Origin: a virus
Taxonomy: Duplodnaviria; Caudoviricetes
IMG/VR virus record: IMGVR_UViG_3300036829_000406
Span: 1-62,395 of that record
Direction: 5' to 3' (one strand)
DNA: 62,395 bases
The position numbers were made by a program, and so were the translations under genes. The number at the start of each line of letters is the position of its first letter. Positions within the stretch are counted from its first letter, which is position 1. This document shows, piece after piece, positions 7,067 to 60,694 of the stretch. The notes beneath the pieces were generated by a model that was not told the origin of the DNA, did not search any database, and worked only from the letters and a program-made list of their open reading frames with translations.

Positions 7067-7803
7067 CCACCGACCTCGCCGCCATCACCCTCGCCAAAGG
7101 CGGCCACGGCGAACCCTCAGCCGACTGCGGCAACCCGCAACGCTGCCTGTTCGAGTGGTACAACTGGCTCACCCGCGCCGAGCACACCGACAGCCGGCCG
7201 CCCGGCGTCTCACGGGTCCTGCACACGTTCGGGATGCGGCTCAATGACGTCCTGCCCGATGGCCGCCGCCAGGAGCTGAAGCGCTTCCTGCCGAACGGCA
7301 GCGACCGGCTCGCGGGAACCGCGGACGACGGCAAGGACGAGACCCGCGGCTACATCGCACTTGACTGGCTCATCCGCACCTGGACGCCCGCGTGGCTCGA
7401 CCTGGGCGGCCTGCCCGCCGAAGCGACCGCGCTCCGGGACCTCCGCCGCATCGCTGATCTCGTCGCGGCCCAGACTGCCGGTCCCGTCGTCCGCGAGGCC
7501 GACTCTAAGGCGGCCGCAGCCAGGGACGCAGCCAGGGACGCAGCCAGGGACGCAGCCAGGGCCGCAGCCAGGGCCGCAGCCTGGGCCGCAGCCTGGGACG
7601 CAGCCTGGGCCGCAGCCAGGGCCGCAGCCAGGGACGCAGCCAGGGACGCAGCCAGGGACGCAGCCAGGGACGCAGCCAGGGACGCAGCCAGGGACGCAGC
7701 CAGGGCCGCAGCCAGGGACAAGCTCGCACCGACTGCAGCTGAGCTGCAGACGTCCGCGATCGCACTCTACGACGTTCTCATCACCGGTGAGTGGCCATCG
7801 TGA
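7063..7803 (+). CDS. hypothetical protein with AA(R/W)(D/A) tetrapeptide repeats
   Basis: 246-aa ORF containing 17 tetrapeptide units. Confidence 0.8.
   Translation: MTTDLAAITLAKGGHGEPSADCGNPQRCLFEWYNWLTRAEHTDSRPPGVSRVLHTFGMRLNDVLPDGRRQELKRFLPNGSDRLAGTADDGKDETRGYIALDWLIRTWTPAWLDLGGLPAEATALRDLRRIADLVAAQTAGPVVREADSKAAAARDAARDAARDAARAAARAAAWAAAWDAAWAAARAAARDAARDAARDAARDAARDAARDAARAAARDKLAPTAAELQTSAIALYDVLITGEWPS
7516..7719 (+). repeat. 12-bp tandem repeat x17, GCAGCC(A/T)GGG(A/C)C
   Basis: directly visible; in frame within 7063-7803. Confidence 0.95.
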
Positions 7804-8099: not shown

Positions 8100-8579
8100 T
8101 TGAGCGTGGGCTACAGGCTCTACCGCCAGATCCGCGACCTCGCGCCGCAGAACTGGACGAGCGGGGAACTGGTCGTCGCGTTCATCATCGCCGACTCGGC
8201 CAATGACGGCACCCGCCGTTCATATCTCGACAATCCCGAGCTATGCAGGCGGGCGAGAATGAGCGGCAACGGCGTCAGGAAAGCACTCCAGCGGCTCGCG
8301 GAAAGAGGATTCGAATTCCGCGTCGGCCAGGGCAAGGATAAGAACGGGAAGGAGCTTTACGCCGTTTCGGGAAAGCCCGTCGAATACCAGGTTCCTGACA
8401 TTTTCATGCTCCTGGAAAGAGGCGCGGCGGTCGCTTACGGGCTTGTGGATAACCCTGCCGCAGCCGGTACCACAGTACCGGCTGACGGGAGGTTATCCAC
8501 AGAAACCAGCCGGTACCACAGTACCGGCCAGCCGGTACCACAGTACCGGCTCAGGCGAAGTCATGCTTCTTTCTCTTGA
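8100..8579 (+). CDS. putative replication initiator (N-terminal winged HTH)
   Basis: 'ELVVAFIIADSAND...ELCRRARMSGNGVRKALQRLAERG' resembles the HTH of phage replisome organisers; internal iterons and DnaA boxes. Confidence 0.65.
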   Translation: MSVGYRLYRQIRDLAPQNWTSGELVVAFIIADSANDGTRRSYLDNPELCRRARMSGNGVRKALQRLAERGFEFRVGQGKDKNGKELYAVSGKPVEYQVPDIFMLLERGAAVAYGLVDNPAAAGTTVPADGRLSTETSRYHSTGQPVPQYRLRRSHASFS

Positions 8580-12922: not shown

Positions 12923-13359
12923 CGCCCTCGGCGCGGGTGCCTGCCGGGTTCGGCCCGGCCCTGTACCGGCTGCGGGCGGCCCGCAGGTGGTCGCTGCGGC
13001 GGGCTGCGGGGGAGGCGGGGGTGTCCGTGACGACAGTGATACGGGCGGAGCAGGGGCACAGCGTGCAGCTGGCGCAGGCGATCAGGCTGGCGTCCGCGTA
13101 CGGCACAACCGTCGGCGCGCTGCTCGACGAAGGCCCGGACAAGGCGACGGTCCTGCTCATCGAGGCAGCCCATGCCTGGGCCGCACTCCGCCGTCACTCC
13201 GGGGCCCCCGAGGGCAGCGCCGAGTCCCAGCGGATCGCCCGGGACGTGATGGGCATCCTTTGCCGAACGGACGCCGGCCGTGACAGCAACCGTGACAGCA
13301 ACCGGGATCGTGGACACCAGCGGACAGCGATGGACAAGGGTGCCGATGACCAGGGTTGA
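12919..13359 (+). CDS. XRE-family HTH protein
   Basis: 'LYRLRAARRWSLRRAAGEAGVSVTTVIRAEQG...AIRLASAYG'; C-terminus runs into the attP arm repeats. Confidence 0.8.
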   Translation: MTPSARVPAGFGPALYRLRAARRWSLRRAAGEAGVSVTTVIRAEQGHSVQLAQAIRLASAYGTTVGALLDEGPDKATVLLIEAAHAWAALRRHSGAPEGSAESQRIARDVMGILCRTDAGRDSNRDSNRDRGHQRTAMDKGADDQG

Positions 13360-13395
13360 CCGCACTGGAGTCCGCCAGTGTCCGGCGGTGCCCAG

Positions 13396-13442
13396 GACTA
13401 CGGATCAGAAGGTTGGGGGTTCGAGTCCCTCCGAGCGCGCCA
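13396..13442 (+). mobile_element. attP core identical in form to the 3' half of tRNA-Arg(ACG)
   Basis: GACTACGGATCAGAAGGTTGGGGGTTCGAGTCCCTCCGAGCGCGCCA: anticodon loop CTACGGA, T-loop TTCGAGT, CCA end; no 5' half; near a tyrosine integrase. Confidence 0.88.
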
Positions 13443-13533
13443 CGCTGACCAGCGGAAATAGCTCCGGTTGCGAGTCGGTAACGCCACAGAAGGTCGCCAC
13501 TGACAGCAACCGTGACAGCAACGCCGAGCGATC

Positions 13534-42316: not shown

Positions 42317-42856
42317 CTAGAATTCCGGGCCCGCCGGGTGAACCGCCAGGTACTGCGCCATCGCCGGGCTCACATGTCCCTGGCCGGCCACCGGCGCCAC
42401 CGTGCTGAACGCATTCGGGTTGGCCACCACCGCCGGGTGGGTGCTGTCCCGCATCGCGCCCGCCTGCGTCAGCTGCGAGCTGACCTCCGCCGTGGACACC
42501 GCGGGCGGCACGGCCGCCACCCCGGCGGTCCCCGTATCCGTGTAGGTCACCACCGCGCCGAGCGTCGCGACCAGCACATTTTCTGTGTTCGTCACGGTGC
42601 CGCGGTACACCTTCACCCCGGTTGTGCCCGACGGCAGCGCCGCCCACGTCAGCGTCGCCGTCCCGTTCGCGGCGACAGCGGTCGTCGCCTCATTCGAGGC
42701 GGTCGTCTCACCGCGGCCGTTGACGCCGGTGATCTTCCAGAAGTACGTGGCCGCCGCGAACGTCCCGCCGCCCACGTTCGGCGACGCGGCCAGCGTCGAC
42801 GGGGGCGCCAGGATCGTCGCGAGGACGAAGCTGTCCGTGCAGTAGCGTGCGGCCAT
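42317..42856 (-). CDS. putative capsid decoration/Fn3-like protein
   Basis: 'YFWKITGVN..GET..S.E...LTW....G..VYRG...YTDTG'. Confidence 0.6.
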   Translation of the reverse strand: MAARYCTDSFVLATILAPPSTLAASPNVGGGTFAAATYFWKITGVNGRGETTASNEATTAVAANGTATLTWAALPSGTTGVKVYRGTVTNTENVLVATLGAVVTYTDTGTAGVAAVPPAVSTAEVSSQLTQAGAMRDSTHPAVVANPNAFSTVAPVAGQGHVSPAMAQYLAVHPAGPEF

Positions 42857-42858
42857 CG

Positions 42859-43539
42859 TCAGCCTGCTTTCCCCGGCGGCAGTTCCAGCCGCCGGTGCTT
42901 TGCCACGTACCTGGCCGCGGCCCTGATGATCTCCGGGTCGTCCAGGAGAAACCCGATGCCCATATTGCAGCGATGGCACAGCAGCCCGCGGACCTGGCCC
43001 GTCACATGATCGTGATCAATGTGCCAGCGTTCCCCGCGACCGCCGGGCCTGTCTGTCTTGCACACTGCGCACTGGTTGCCCTGATGCTTGATGAGCGCAT
43101 CCCAGCCGGCTTGCGTCAGCCCGTACAGCCGCAGCGTGCGGGCGCGCTCGCGGACCTGAGCGTCCGGGCGCGGGTCCTTCCGGCAGCCTGGGCAGACGGG
43201 CTTCCCGACCAGGGTACTGACCTCCGCGCCGCACGCGCAGCGACGAGGGCCCAGCGCGGAGTTCCGCTCGATCTTCCGCTGCTCAGATGCCGCCATCGTG
43301 CACCGGCGCGAGCAGTAGACCTGCGGGTTACCGGCGGTGCGCGACCGGGTGAACTTAGCGCCGCACTGCGGGCAGATCATCACCTCGGGTCCATGCACCC
43401 GCGGGACGTACCTGGATCTCATGTATTCGAGATGGCATTCCTTGCAGTCCGACCGGACGCCGCCAGCGCCCGCGATCATCCTGTGAAACTCAGTCAGCGG
43501 CTTCGTCTTATGGCAATGCGAGCATGTCTTTTCGTCCAT
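42859..43539 (-). CDS. endonuclease VII-family (His-Me) free-standing homing endonuclease
   Basis: N-terminal Zn fingers (CSHC..KPLTEFH..CKEC; CPQC..YCS..C); C-terminal 'YGLT...Q...CAVC...IDHDH.TG.VRGLLC..CN..IG'. Confidence 0.9.
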   Translation of the reverse strand: MDEKTCSHCHKTKPLTEFHRMIAGAGGVRSDCKECHLEYMRSRYVPRVHGPEVMICPQCGAKFTRSRTAGNPQVYCSRRCTMAASEQRKIERNSALGPRRCACGAEVSTLVGKPVCPGCRKDPRPDAQVRERARTLRLYGLTQAGWDALIKHQGNQCAVCKTDRPGGRGERWHIDHDHVTGQVRGLLCHRCNMGIGFLLDDPEIIRAAARYVAKHRRLELPPGKAG

Positions 43540-43556
43540 ACAGACATACTAGTTCG

Positions 43557-43631
43557 GCTGGTTTCCCCAGGCTGACGACCGGCGGATGCACGATTATCAA
43601 CTCGGGGAAACCAGCGCCAGAACATGAACCA
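43557..43631 (-). other. 18-nt copy of capsid sequence fused to a long hairpin (candidate ncRNA/operator)
   Basis: 43614-43631 identical to 43693-43710; 12-bp inverted repeat 43557-43568/43604-43615 with further internal pairing. Confidence 0.7.
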
Positions 43632-43638
43632 GGGAAGG

Positions 43639-45072
43639 TCAGAGGCCCTTCATCACGCGGAATGCTCCCGGCACAGCGACCTGGCTGGATGTGCGCCAGA
43701 ACATGAACCATCCGGCCTCGCCCTGGGGCCGGCCGGTGGTGGGGTCCTTGATCAGAGGCTCATAAATAAGGCTGACCCCCACGCGGTCGACCACGATGAA
43801 CTGCCCGAAGTCGCCCATGACGGCTTCGAGACTGCCGACAGAGGTAGCACCAGACATGGTGGTCGACTCGTAGATCGGGGCGCCGAGCAGGGTTTCCGGC
43901 TGGCCCTTGCCGAGGTTCGTCCAGAACGACGCGCCACCCGCGGTGTCGAGCTGCCGGAACTTGTTGATGATCGCCACGTTCGCGACCCACGCGCAGCCCG
44001 GCGCGTTCCGGAACCTGGGCGGCAGAGCACCCTGGACGGCGTAGATGTCGCCGACCGCGATGACCAGCGTGGTCGCGGTGGTGACGACGGTGGTGGCACC
44101 GGTAATGACACCCTGCGGGACACCCCCGGAACCCGCGCCGGTCGCGAACGCGGCCTCTTCCAGCCGGTCCTTGGCGTCCGCGAGGAGCCGCGGGAGCTGC
44201 TGCCCGAAGTCGGTGTCCTCCAGCACCTCATAGGTGCCGAACACCCACGCGGCGGCCTTCTGCGGGGTGATCTGGACGTTCCCGACGGTCGGCGTGTTGT
44301 CGGTGGCGACGCCGCCCTCAGCAAGCCACGCCGCGTTGACACCGGCCGACGTCACACCGTTCCACGTGTTGCTCGTGGTCTGCTTGACGTTGCTGATGCG
44401 CCGCCACGGGTTCGCGCTCCCCGTGTTCGTTAGTATGATCGTTGGGTCTAGTACGAACGGAAGGAGGTACCCTCCGTTGGCCAGGGTGAGCGACAGCGCG
44501 GCACGCTGGGCCATGCCCTGCGGGTCCTCGATATACGCGCGGAACGTCTCCTGGTACTCCTCGGAGCCGGTGGCCAGGATGTGCTCGGCGATACCGCGGC
44601 CGTAGGTGCCGGGGTTCTCCTGAACGATCCGCGTGGCGTTCTCCGCGAAGTCCTGGGCGAGGTTCCCCCGCTTGGCCTCCAGCTCGATCGCGTCGAACGC
44701 GCGGCCGCGGAGCTCGGAGGTGCGGACCAGGTGGGACCGCACCGCGCCGAGGTCCTCGTACGGGTTGCGGAACTTGCCGCGGGAGCCGAGGTCCGGGGCG
44801 CCGTCATGCCACACCCCGGAGGGGGCGGTGCCGCCGTCGCCGTCGGGGCGCTCGAGGTTCGCCGGGTCGTCAGCGGTGCGGGTGATGGCCTGGATCTGCT
44901 CCATCCGCTCGATGATCGGCTTGCACTCCTCATCGAGCTGCTTCCACCGGTCGACAAGAGTGTCGCGGTAGTCGCCGTCGTTCTCCTCCGTAGTCTCCTC
45001 GGAGGTCTCCATCCGCCGGAGCTCGCCCTTAATGCGGGCCATCTCGTCCAGCTTGTCTTTCAGCGTCGCCAT
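43639..45072 (-). CDS. major capsid protein (HK97 fold)
   Basis: N-terminal coiled delta domain; 'GGYLLP', 'AWLAEG', 'G.G...PQGV', 'LLG.P', 'GDF..F..VDR'. Confidence 0.95.
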   Translation of the reverse strand: MATLKDKLDEMARIKGELRRMETSEETTEENDGDYRDTLVDRWKQLDEECKPIIERMEQIQAITRTADDPANLERPDGDGGTAPSGVWHDGAPDLGSRGKFRNPYEDLGAVRSHLVRTSELRGRAFDAIELEAKRGNLAQDFAENATRIVQENPGTYGRGIAEHILATGSEEYQETFRAYIEDPQGMAQRAALSLTLANGGYLLPFVLDPTIILTNTGSANPWRRISNVKQTTSNTWNGVTSAGVNAAWLAEGGVATDNTPTVGNVQITPQKAAAWVFGTYEVLEDTDFGQQLPRLLADAKDRLEEAAFATGAGSGGVPQGVITGATTVVTTATTLVIAVGDIYAVQGALPPRFRNAPGCAWVANVAIINKFRQLDTAGGASFWTNLGKGQPETLLGAPIYESTTMSGATSVGSLEAVMGDFGQFIVVDRVGVSLIYEPLIKDPTTGRPQGEAGWFMFWRTSSQVAVPGAFRVMKGL

Positions 45073-60088: not shown

Positions 60089-60694
60089 TTAGCAGGTCGC
60101 GGTCAGGGTGCCGCCGTAGCGGCTGGCCGCCCACGGGCTGGCCATGATGGCGTTGCATACCGCCTGTGCGCTGGCGCCCCGGCGAAGTGCAGCGAGGATG
60201 CCGCTGTAGTAGCCGTTGTTCAGCGTGGCGACCGTGTACCGGAGGCCCGTCTGGGCGTCAGGAAATGCCCACGCGCCTATGACATTGCGTCCGGGCCAAT
60301 CTGCGCCAGCGCCCGGATTGACATTCAGCGGGTTATAGGCGGCCTGGTTGCCGAACCCGCCGCCTTCCCTGGCTTCCCATTCGCGGATCGCGGACAGGTT
60401 GCAGGCGGTACGGGGCAGGCTGTCCGCGGCGAGCAGTGCGGCGGCCCAGCCGGACGGGGTGTTCAGGCTGCTGCCGGACGGGATGGCCGCCTGGGCTTCG
60501 GTCGCGTGCCCGGAGCTGCTGCCGTGGTGCGCGGCGGCTGCCCTGCTGCCGTGGTGCGCGGCGGCTGCCCTGGTGCCGGTCGCGGCGGCCAGCACGACGG
60601 CCACGGTCACGGCGATGACCGGGCCCGCGCTGCCGCTCTTGCCGTAGCTGCGGTAGCGGTACTTGCGCGGCAGGCGGTAGGTGAAGGCGGCCAT
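60089..60694 (-). CDS. membrane-anchored lysozyme-like/transglycosylase protein
   Basis: TM then 'WEAREGG......YNPLN......F.....GL..TV.TL.NG.Y..I..AL......SPWA...Y'. Confidence 0.6.
   Translation of the reverse strand: MAAFTYRLPRKYRYRSYGKSGSAGPVIAVTVAVVLAAATGTRAAAAHHGSRAAAAHHGSSSGHATEAQAAIPSGSSLNTPSGWAAALLAADSLPRTACNLSAIREWEAREGGGFGNQAAYNPLNVNPGAGADWPGRNVIGAWAFPDAQTGLRYTVATLNNGYYSGILAALRRGASAQAVCNAIMASPWAASRYGGTLTATC

Follow-up and report, generated by a model that had tools for sequence, protein, structure and literature searches.

Genes and repeats behind the capsid gene

The window analysed here is the whole of the IMG/VR provirus record IMGVR_UViG_3300036829_000406 (Duplodnaviria; Caudoviricetes; 62,395 nt), and the system in question is a free-standing homing-endonuclease gene of the endonuclease VII (EndoVII) type situated directly behind the major capsid protein gene, preceded by an exact 18-nt copy of capsid codons that runs into a hairpin. 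All coordinates of the locus are read on the minus strand. The HK97-type capsid gene (43639-45072; 477 amino acids; Phage_capsid, PF05065, E 4.4e-36) ends in ...GWFMFWRTSSQVAVPGAFRVMKGL with the stop codon TGA at 43641-43639. A 7-nt spacer (43638-43632) is followed at 43631-43614 by TGGTTCATGTTCTGGCGC, a direct repeat (copy B) that is identical in all 18 nt to the codons for WFMFWR at 43710-43693 within the capsid open reading frame (ORF; copy A), the two copies being spaced 79 nt from start to start. The final two nucleotides of copy B are part of the stem of a 59-nt hairpin (43557-43615; z -5.2). Beyond it lie the -10-like sequence TAGTAT (43546-43551) and, after 6 nt, the ATG (43539) of the endonuclease gene (42859-43539; 226 amino acids; PF02945, E 6e-21), the last codons of which (..GGGAAAGCAGGCTGA) provide the ribosome-binding region of a conserved structural gene without a Pfam family (42317-42856; 179 amino acids). 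An earlier note, made from the sequence of this stretch, had described the exact match just beyond the capsid stop, the hairpin of about 60 nt with G-U pairs in its interior and the TAGTAT preceding the nuclease ATG, and each of these features was confirmed.

In the window, the 18-mer has only two sites at up to three mismatches (expected 0.00 from 100 dinucleotide shuffles), and a short-range direct-repeat scan of the whole window found no other coding stretch repeated in adjoining non-coding DNA. Because the two copies are on the same side of the nuclease gene, upstream of it, they are not a target-site duplication, as the earlier note had also concluded. A tandem duplication of the capsid 3' end was rejected as well, since the window shares only the 18 nt.

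A slot for homing endonucleases

Relatives of the window's capsid protein were found in viral contigs (63) and in a metagenome-assembled genome of an uncultured Actinomycetota bacterium (one further), and the annotated phage GenBank collection yielded only three weak Gordonia phage matches, each covering 5% of the query, and no annotated close relative. EndoVII homologs behind capsid genes were gathered from viral and metagenome contigs. The space behind the capsid gene was surveyed in 62 loci in which the end of the capsid gene could be recognised and 150 nt or more of downstream sequence was present, the class of the gene found there being assigned by tblastn; duplicate contigs (L065-67, L069, L077 and L090) were left out, and two loci (L002 and L037) falsely assigned to GIY-YIG, the query having run into the out-of-frame next gene, were moved by hand to the class without an occupant.

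EndoVII genes occupy this space in 11 of the 62 loci, HNH_3 genes in 21 and GIY-YIG genes in three; in 19 loci it is empty, the next structural gene coming directly after the capsid gene, and in eight the occupant is unclear. Pfam searches confirmed HNH_3 (PF13392), mostly with zinc-finger modules, in seven representatives and GIY-YIG (PF01541) in L005. The EndoVII gene is an optional free-standing gene between two conserved genes (11 loci, beside 24 with other nucleases and 19 with none), the 179-amino-acid structural gene being the right border in the window. Because its occupants vary among EndoVII, HNH_3, GIY-YIG and none across the 62 loci, the space behind the capsid gene is a homing-endonuclease slot with turnover among three catalytic families. 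Homing endonucleases have been reported to gather close to essential genes of phages, among them capsid genes (PMC10448857). In L005 (5552-6706), the GIY-YIG ORF continues for 385 amino acids, passing out of frame into the structural gene that follows; the real gene is likely to be shorter or to contain a frameshift.

The endonuclease

The EndoVII domain of the 226-amino-acid product contains C157xxC160 (CAVC157), D175-H176-D177-H178, R184, C188xxC191 (CHRC188) and N192. These are the complete set of motifs by which the F-CphI (DHHRN) family is defined: a central DHDH, an N-terminal CX2-4C, a C-terminal CX2C, and conserved R and N, as set out in PMC6083498. The protein has CX2C, DHDH, R and CX2C-N. 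The catalytic motif residues are invariant in nine aligned homologs except for H178, which is missing in L061. The N-terminal 120 residues hold 12 cysteines in CxxC-type pairs, likewise invariant in the nine homologs, which would form three Cys4 zinc modules for DNA recognition. In sequence searches, the best matches among solved structures were the beta-beta-alpha-Me restriction enzyme Hpy99I (1.6e-5) and T4 endonuclease VII (6e-3). An AlphaFold model (mean pLDDT, the predicted local distance difference test score, 74.7; pTM, the predicted template modelling score, 0.40) had no Foldseek match in the PDB at E <= 0.001, its best match being again Hpy99I (2.2e-3), so that nothing was gained beyond the sequence search. 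No RuvC- or TnpB-like domain was found in the Pfam, structure-sequence and fold searches, a fold match to IscB being non-significant (E 1.4).

The EndoVII homolog of L061 (6100-6771) lacks two residues in its DHDH motif (DHD--T), and may be a copy in decay that has lost its activity.

A predicted group I intron insertion site next to the repeat

In seven of the 62 loci (L006, L007, L024, L059, L035, L062 and L068), the capsid gene contains an insertion of about 250-275 nt that ends exactly 5' of the TGG of the 18-mer, and exon 2 opens with the 18 nt of the WFMFWR codons. Exon 1 ends in ...GCCGGT and the insertion in ...AACAATCCG, the last base of exon 1 being T and that of the intron G. The insertion of L007 (5365-5590) matches the whole of the Rfam model Intron_gpI with 35.4 bits, below the gathering score of 50 (E 1.4e-7 in a small search), and has a P7-like AGACUA/UAGUC; these insertions are predicted to be group I introns. 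An endonuclease gene lies behind the capsid gene in six of the seven loci with an intron here, HNH_3 in five and EndoVII in L068. The window's own capsid gene has the consensus 18-mer and no intron, and an alternative 3' splice site was accordingly rejected as an explanation of copy B; the remnant of an intron 3' end ahead of copy B was also rejected, the likeness being only about 5 nt. This wider context, in which the 18-mer abuts a predicted group I intron site and the slot is used by several endonuclease families, was missed in the earlier note.

The same insertion family occurs in 16 further places in 11 loci, at other capsid-gene positions too, with three copies each in L059 (4880-5137, 5611-5851 and 5958-6230) and L062 (4654-4885, 5110-5337 and 5897-6151). 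Other copies are found in L061 (4658-4885 and 5117-5357), L054 (4639-4874) and L055 (4023-4253). The family is ORF-less, about 230-275 nt long and 72-92% identical to the L007 copy at its several positions in the capsid gene, and each copy has its own 5' end beside a common CTGGCCGCC/GCCGCCT block, as though the guide sequence had been retargeted.

The arginine of WFMFWR is encoded by AGG or AGA in many relatives (for example L003, L007, L015, L038, L044 and L051), which gives the impression of being unusual for G+C-rich DNA; this choice could reflect escape from, or pairing with, a reader of the WFMFWR sequence.

Capsid-like motifs at the left border of the slot

Between position -4 and +95 relative to the capsid stop codon, the core TTCATGTTCTGG is matched at 10 or more of its 12 positions in 21 of the 62 loci and in 23 of 4883 control pieces, an enrichment of about 70-fold. 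At 11 or more positions it is found in nine loci and one control piece, and at all 12 positions in four loci and no control piece. Motifs at the first of these thresholds accompany every class of occupant (EndoVII, 4 of 11 loci; HNH_3, 8 of 21; GIY-YIG, 2 of 3; none, 6 of 19; unclear, 1 of 8) and are found in both orientations. Because the rate is similar whatever the occupant and the orientation may be either, the capsid-like copy is part of the left border of the slot, and not of the EndoVII cassette. Exact matches to TTCAYRTTCTGG are limited to the coding copy and the post-stop position, with none elsewhere in the loci or the window, and a genome-wide regulatory motif was rejected for the same absence of the 18-mer elsewhere. 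In 9 of 61 loci the capsid tail has exact 10-mers in common with the 150 nt that follow its stop, versus 134 matches in 2958 control pieces, a modest enrichment beyond the WFMFW motif. An exact-pattern scan of the viral contigs for direct duplicates matched only the L006 contig, and the same kind of scan for inverted duplicates at 60-90 nt spacing matched none.

Among the 11 EndoVII loci, the direct exact copy is found in the window only. Three loci (L012, L061 and L078) have a partial inverted copy (CTCCAGAAC[G/A]TGAA..), and seven (L022, L027, L029, L068, L088, L074 and L089) have no copy at 10 or more positions; L022 has the same hairpin as the window and a protein 78% identical, yet only CTGGCGC in common with the 18-mer. 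The presence and orientation of the motif are patchy on the EndoVII tree, where the window has it direct, L012 inverted and L022 not at all. By position, copy B is the counterpart of motifs similar to copy A at stop +7 to +9 in L006, L002, L015, L001, L024 and L037, the window and L006 both having it at stop +7, and the 54-nt capsid tail of the window is closest to those of L007 (44/54), L006 (42/54), L015 (41/54) and L024 (40/54). Together these are a weak hint of shared ancestry of the left border.

Where the slot holds no endonuclease, the motif forms one arm of a post-stop hairpin (L002, L015 and L001, and L037 with an inverted 17-mer), and in L037 and L001 direct and inverted copies make up its two arms. 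Past the capsid stop of L078 (1385-1505), a direct copy of the final capsid codons (AGGGTCATGAAGGGCG) and an inverted unit consisting of VMKGA codons, TAA, 4 nt and TGGTTCATGTTCTGGAG together make a terminator-like hairpin 5' of the EndoVII gene.

One rival explanation is that the post-stop copies are arms of a capsid terminator or other 3'-end structure of the capsid message, produced by local direct or inverted duplication. The arms of the hairpins in L037, L001 and L078, the presence of the motif without any endonuclease in six of 19 loci, and the capacity of inverted TAA-CTCCAGAACGTGAA copies to pair with the coding copy over 10-14 bp, G-U pairs allowed, are in keeping with this explanation. 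It is nevertheless an unlikely one, for a direct copy such as that of the window cannot pair with the coding copy, and only the final bases of the window copy enter the stem. Furthermore, a hand tally of the first base of the arginine codon and its partner in 18 loci gave ten fits and eight misfits, about what chance would give, and post-stop copies do not track the capsid allele of their own locus in a permutation test (310 own matches, permuted mean 309.7; 275 and 276.4 without the window and L037).

A different function for the motif is suggested by the HNH_3 loci, in six of which (L006, L007, L024, L038, L030 and L047) it abuts a TGn-TAnnnT box that is followed after 6-7 nt by the ATG, and in four of which (L010, L028, L050 and L045) it covers the box, the start site and the ATG. 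The zinc modules of the window's endonuclease might bind the intergenic 18-mer as they would the capsid target, without cutting, and thereby block read-through or tune expression, and the other endonuclease families of the slot might use the same trick, aiming at the same conserved capsid sequence. There is a precedent in I-TevI of phage T4 (PMC2988022). Such an operator or decoy remains a real rival to the explanation preferred below, because the window copy is exact (18/18), the core is conserved in five loci with divergent flanks (L003, L011, L026, L062 and L008) and the motif lies at the promoter in HNH_3 loci; the enrichment over controls also favours it. On the other side, the window copy ends (43614) 63 nt upstream of TAGTAT with the hairpin between them, and therefore does not overlap the putative promoter, the overlap of promoter and motif being found in the HNH_3 relatives L006, L007, L010, L028 and L050 and not in the window. 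The motif is missing from seven of the 11 EndoVII loci, including the one with the same hairpin, it is about as frequent without an endonuclease as with EndoVII, its orientation flips among close EndoVII relatives, and its copies do not track their own capsid allele. The 18-mer copy matches exactly the conserved capsid sequence beside the intron insertion site, which is a putative homing site. Weighing these points, we regard the operator as a possibility of a tentative kind; slightly more doubtful still is the broader proposal that the motif is a working mimic of the homing site common to the HNH_3, EndoVII and GIY-YIG occupants, bound by them as an operator or decoy, and that the 18-mer of the window is maintained as such.

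In the first 60 nt after the capsid stop of L038, L047 and L030, a capsid-like motif (CTCCAGGACGTGA and similar) precedes another stretch resembling it, which holds an active-looking TAnACT box and the HNH_3 ATG. The motif of these loci has the appearance of a 5' end that an older cassette left behind ahead of a newer one.

The hairpin and the start of the endonuclease gene

The hairpin of the window (43615-43557) has an outer stem of 13 bp (GCUGGUUUCCCC / GGGGAAACCAGC) and inner stems of 6, 4 and 2 bp, including G-U pairs. The 116-nt fold has a free energy of -48.4 kcal/mol, and none of 200 shuffled sequences was as stable. Homologous hairpins are present in one other EndoVII locus (L022) and four HNH_3 loci (L018, L052, L059 and L004), and in these six sequences 9 of the 22 pairs keep pairing with changes on both sides; therefore the hairpin is selected as RNA. 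The earlier note had read the G-U pairs as a sign of structure at the RNA level, which the compensatory changes substantiate. In the four HNH_3 loci, the 3' arm encloses a GGGAGG ribosome-binding site just 5' of the HNH_3 ATG. Strong hairpins (z -3.4 to -5.5) lie between the capsid and nuclease genes in all six other EndoVII loci folded, of which only that of L022 is homologous to the window's, those of L012, L027, L061, L029 and L078 being different.

The hairpin is not followed by a T-run, as the G+C-rich hairpin of an intrinsic terminator would be (terminators without such tracts are said to be common in Actinobacteria). No Rfam family was matched at the gathering score in the window or in nine loci, and at an E-value threshold the window region had only matches at chance level. 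Its probable role is to insulate the endonuclease gene from the capsid gene, or to terminate transcription between them, at the RNA level, and it behaves like the insulating or translation-blocking hairpins of T4 endonuclease genes, unlike a guide scaffold.

TAGTAT-N6-ATG is kept in six of the ten EndoVII loci compared (the window, L012, L022, L027, L061 and L068), and L029 and L088 have a Shine-Dalgarno sequence in its place. Leaderless starts are common in Actinobacteria, and TAGTAT may be the promoter of a leaderless nuclease mRNA.

One of two explanations put forward in the earlier note was an RNA-guided homing system, in which the 18-mer as 5' guide and the hairpin as scaffold would aim the EndoVII protein at the capsid genes of competing phages. 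An exact match to a conserved capsid sequence beside a structured hairpin upstream of a nuclease gene speaks for it, and the G-U pairs and compensatory changes confirm that the hairpin is selected as RNA. The comparison of homologs speaks strongly to the contrary, as ten of the 11 homologous loci lack a direct copy at this position (direct in one, partial and inverted in three, none in seven), the hairpins are not conserved across EndoVII homologs, and the hairpin family also serves HNH_3 genes, where it encloses the ribosome-binding site. The hairpin matches no Rfam family, the zinc modules are suited to reading DNA, and no known domain of an RNA-guided nuclease is present. A guide of this sequence would be identical to the capsid gene of the phage itself and so aim the nuclease at its own genome, and if transcription starts at the ATG driven by TAGTAT, the 18-mer and hairpin are outside the nuclease transcript. 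Guidance by this RNA is very improbable, and the locus is not a lead to a new class of programmable nucleases.

The second explanation of the earlier note, an operator combined with an attenuating hairpin, fared better in its hairpin half, given the compensatory changes and the presence of a hairpin in every EndoVII locus folded; its operator half is a possibility, against which it counts that the copy is distant from TAGTAT, absent from most EndoVII relatives and equally common with other nucleases or none. As to the note's question of whether the sequence upstream of the nuclease always matches the neighbouring gene in homologs while the hairpin covaries, the match is not general, and the hairpin of the window's type does covary but is mostly replaced elsewhere by non-homologous ones.

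A proposed protein-guided cassette with a border motif

We hold with moderate confidence that the locus is a protein-guided, F-CphI-like free-standing endonuclease cassette, and that its 18-mer is a surviving left-border motif made exact from the coding copy. The cassette adjoins the 3' end of the major capsid gene in an actinobacterial phage or prophage; its Cys4 modules would bind DNA, and its C-terminal EndoVII/DHHRN domain would provide catalysis as in F-CphI. The probable targets of the nuclease are capsid alleles of co-infecting relatives that have no endonuclease gene, which it would cut near the conserved WFMFWR codons, and the cassette would be copied into the cut allele when the break is repaired. 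The hairpin, acting in RNA, would shield the nuclease gene from the strong transcription of the capsid gene. Transcription of the nuclease would start at a weak promoter of its own, TAGTAT, and give a leaderless mRNA; in read-through transcripts, its AUG would be internal and without a Shine-Dalgarno sequence, and translation would be poor.

The EndoVII cassette may have taken the place of another gene that held the slot before. The 18-mer would then most likely be a remnant of previous endonuclease genes, the promoters of which adjoin motifs of this kind in relatives. With the coding copy at a distance of 79 nt as the source, short-patch gene conversion or template switching could have refreshed it to identity, with no dedicated function for EndoVII. 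The order of elements in L038, L047 and L030, a motif similar to copy A and then an active HNH_3 promoter, fits serial replacement.

Several observations weigh against this account. The window copy, at 18/18, is better preserved than all others (17/18 for the inverted copy of L037, and 11-15/18 for most of the rest); a decaying relic should match worse, and therefore recent conversion must be assumed. The 12-nt core TGGTTTATGTTC/T is identical in the five loci with differing flanks named above, which hints at constraint on the motif itself, and in HNH_3 loci the motif is always at or just upstream of the -10 box or the start, the position of an operator. A consensus scan detected no E. coli-type terminators and no sigma-70 promoters at the locus, and the group I assignment of the introns is made below the Rfam gathering score. 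The predicted cleavage near the WFMFWR codons would also threaten the window's own capsid gene, which has the consensus 18-mer and no intron.

Relation to known systems

The cassette resembles F-CphI of cyanophage S-PM2 in being a free-standing gene beside a conserved gene that has a group I intron site, a predicted one in the present case, and in joining a C-terminal EndoVII motif to an N-terminal part of another kind; in L068, the EndoVII homolog follows a capsid gene with an intron at the same site. It differs in its actinobacterial host, in adjoining a capsid gene and in its three N-terminal Cys4 modules, and cleavage is in this case a prediction. Because the window's capsid gene has no intron, self-protection cannot come from an intron, unlike that of F-CphI. 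F-CphI and the psbA intron of S-PM2 are described as a case of 'collaborative homing' (PMC6083498), and the layout of the loci that have both intron and endonuclease (six of seven) is that of F-CphI and psbA.

In T4, I-TevI and I-TevII, and likewise I-TevIII, are autorepressed through operators that look like their homing sites, and I-TevI, segB and mobE are controlled by hairpins or terminators (PMC2988022). Like the I-Tev operators, the sequence upstream of the slot's endonuclease ORF resembles a probable homing site, and in HNH_3 loci it overlaps or abuts the -10 box. Unlike them, it belongs to a free-standing gene instead of an intron-encoded one, lies 63 nt upstream instead of over the promoter, is missing from most homologs, is present in endonuclease-free loci, and is only a candidate for binding. 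As with I-TevI, segB and mobE, a stable RNA hairpin lies just 5' of the endonuclease gene with the promoter downstream of it, so that read-through transcripts would be poorly translated under control of the T4 type, and in L018, L052, L059 and L004 the hairpin encloses the ribosome-binding site. The window's hairpin differs in not covering a ribosome-binding site, in the apparently leaderless start and in having no U-tract. Capsid introns in phages of high G+C content have been reported (PMC3706429), the case for comparison being the capsid intron and free-standing HNH genes of Cluster J mycobacteriophages. The introns of the present loci, unlike that one, are ORF-less and form a single family, which is found at several sites and as often as three times in one capsid gene, and the endonuclease genes are found behind the capsid gene, not within the intron.

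The likeness to the omega-RNA (OMEGA) systems of IscB and TnpB is limited to a superficial layout of nuclease gene, structured non-coding stretch and target match, as a conserved scaffold RNA and a RuvC domain are both lacking and the homologs have no segment that matches the target.

Free-standing endonucleases with EndoVII motifs, collaborative homing, target look-alikes, regulatory hairpins and capsid introns have all been described already. What is new is a soil-actinophage case of unusual density, with one slot used by three nuclease families and single capsid genes holding as many as three related introns. The locus is a natural example of the turnover of selfish elements, combining a slot, colonisation by introns and a target look-alike at the border, and it raises the questions of whether free-standing endonucleases regulate themselves through target mimics and how the intron-endonuclease partnerships of 'collaborative homing' originate in soil actinophages. 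In the literature searched, which included few subscription journals, autorepression of homing endonucleases was found for T4 intron enzymes only. If the motif is a shared mimic, autorepression of the I-TevI type would extend from these enzymes to free-standing endonucleases of actinophages, and the regulation of the endonucleases would be tied to the intron insertion site that is targeted.

Other repeats in the window

Repeats of other kinds were observed elsewhere in the window. About 18 or more tandem 12-nt units (GGACGCAGCCAG and variants) at 7464-7765 presumably encode a peptide repeat, and three copies of a palindromic unit of 22-24 nt (CAGCCGGTACCACAGTACCGGCTG), spaced 46 and 22 nt, at 8461-8564 could be an array of operators or terminators. 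An exact 22-nt repeat (TGACAGCAACCGTGACAGCAAC) occurs at 13281 and 13501 (within 13281-13522), 220 nt apart, and a perfect 27-nt tandem duplication is located at 60516-60569.

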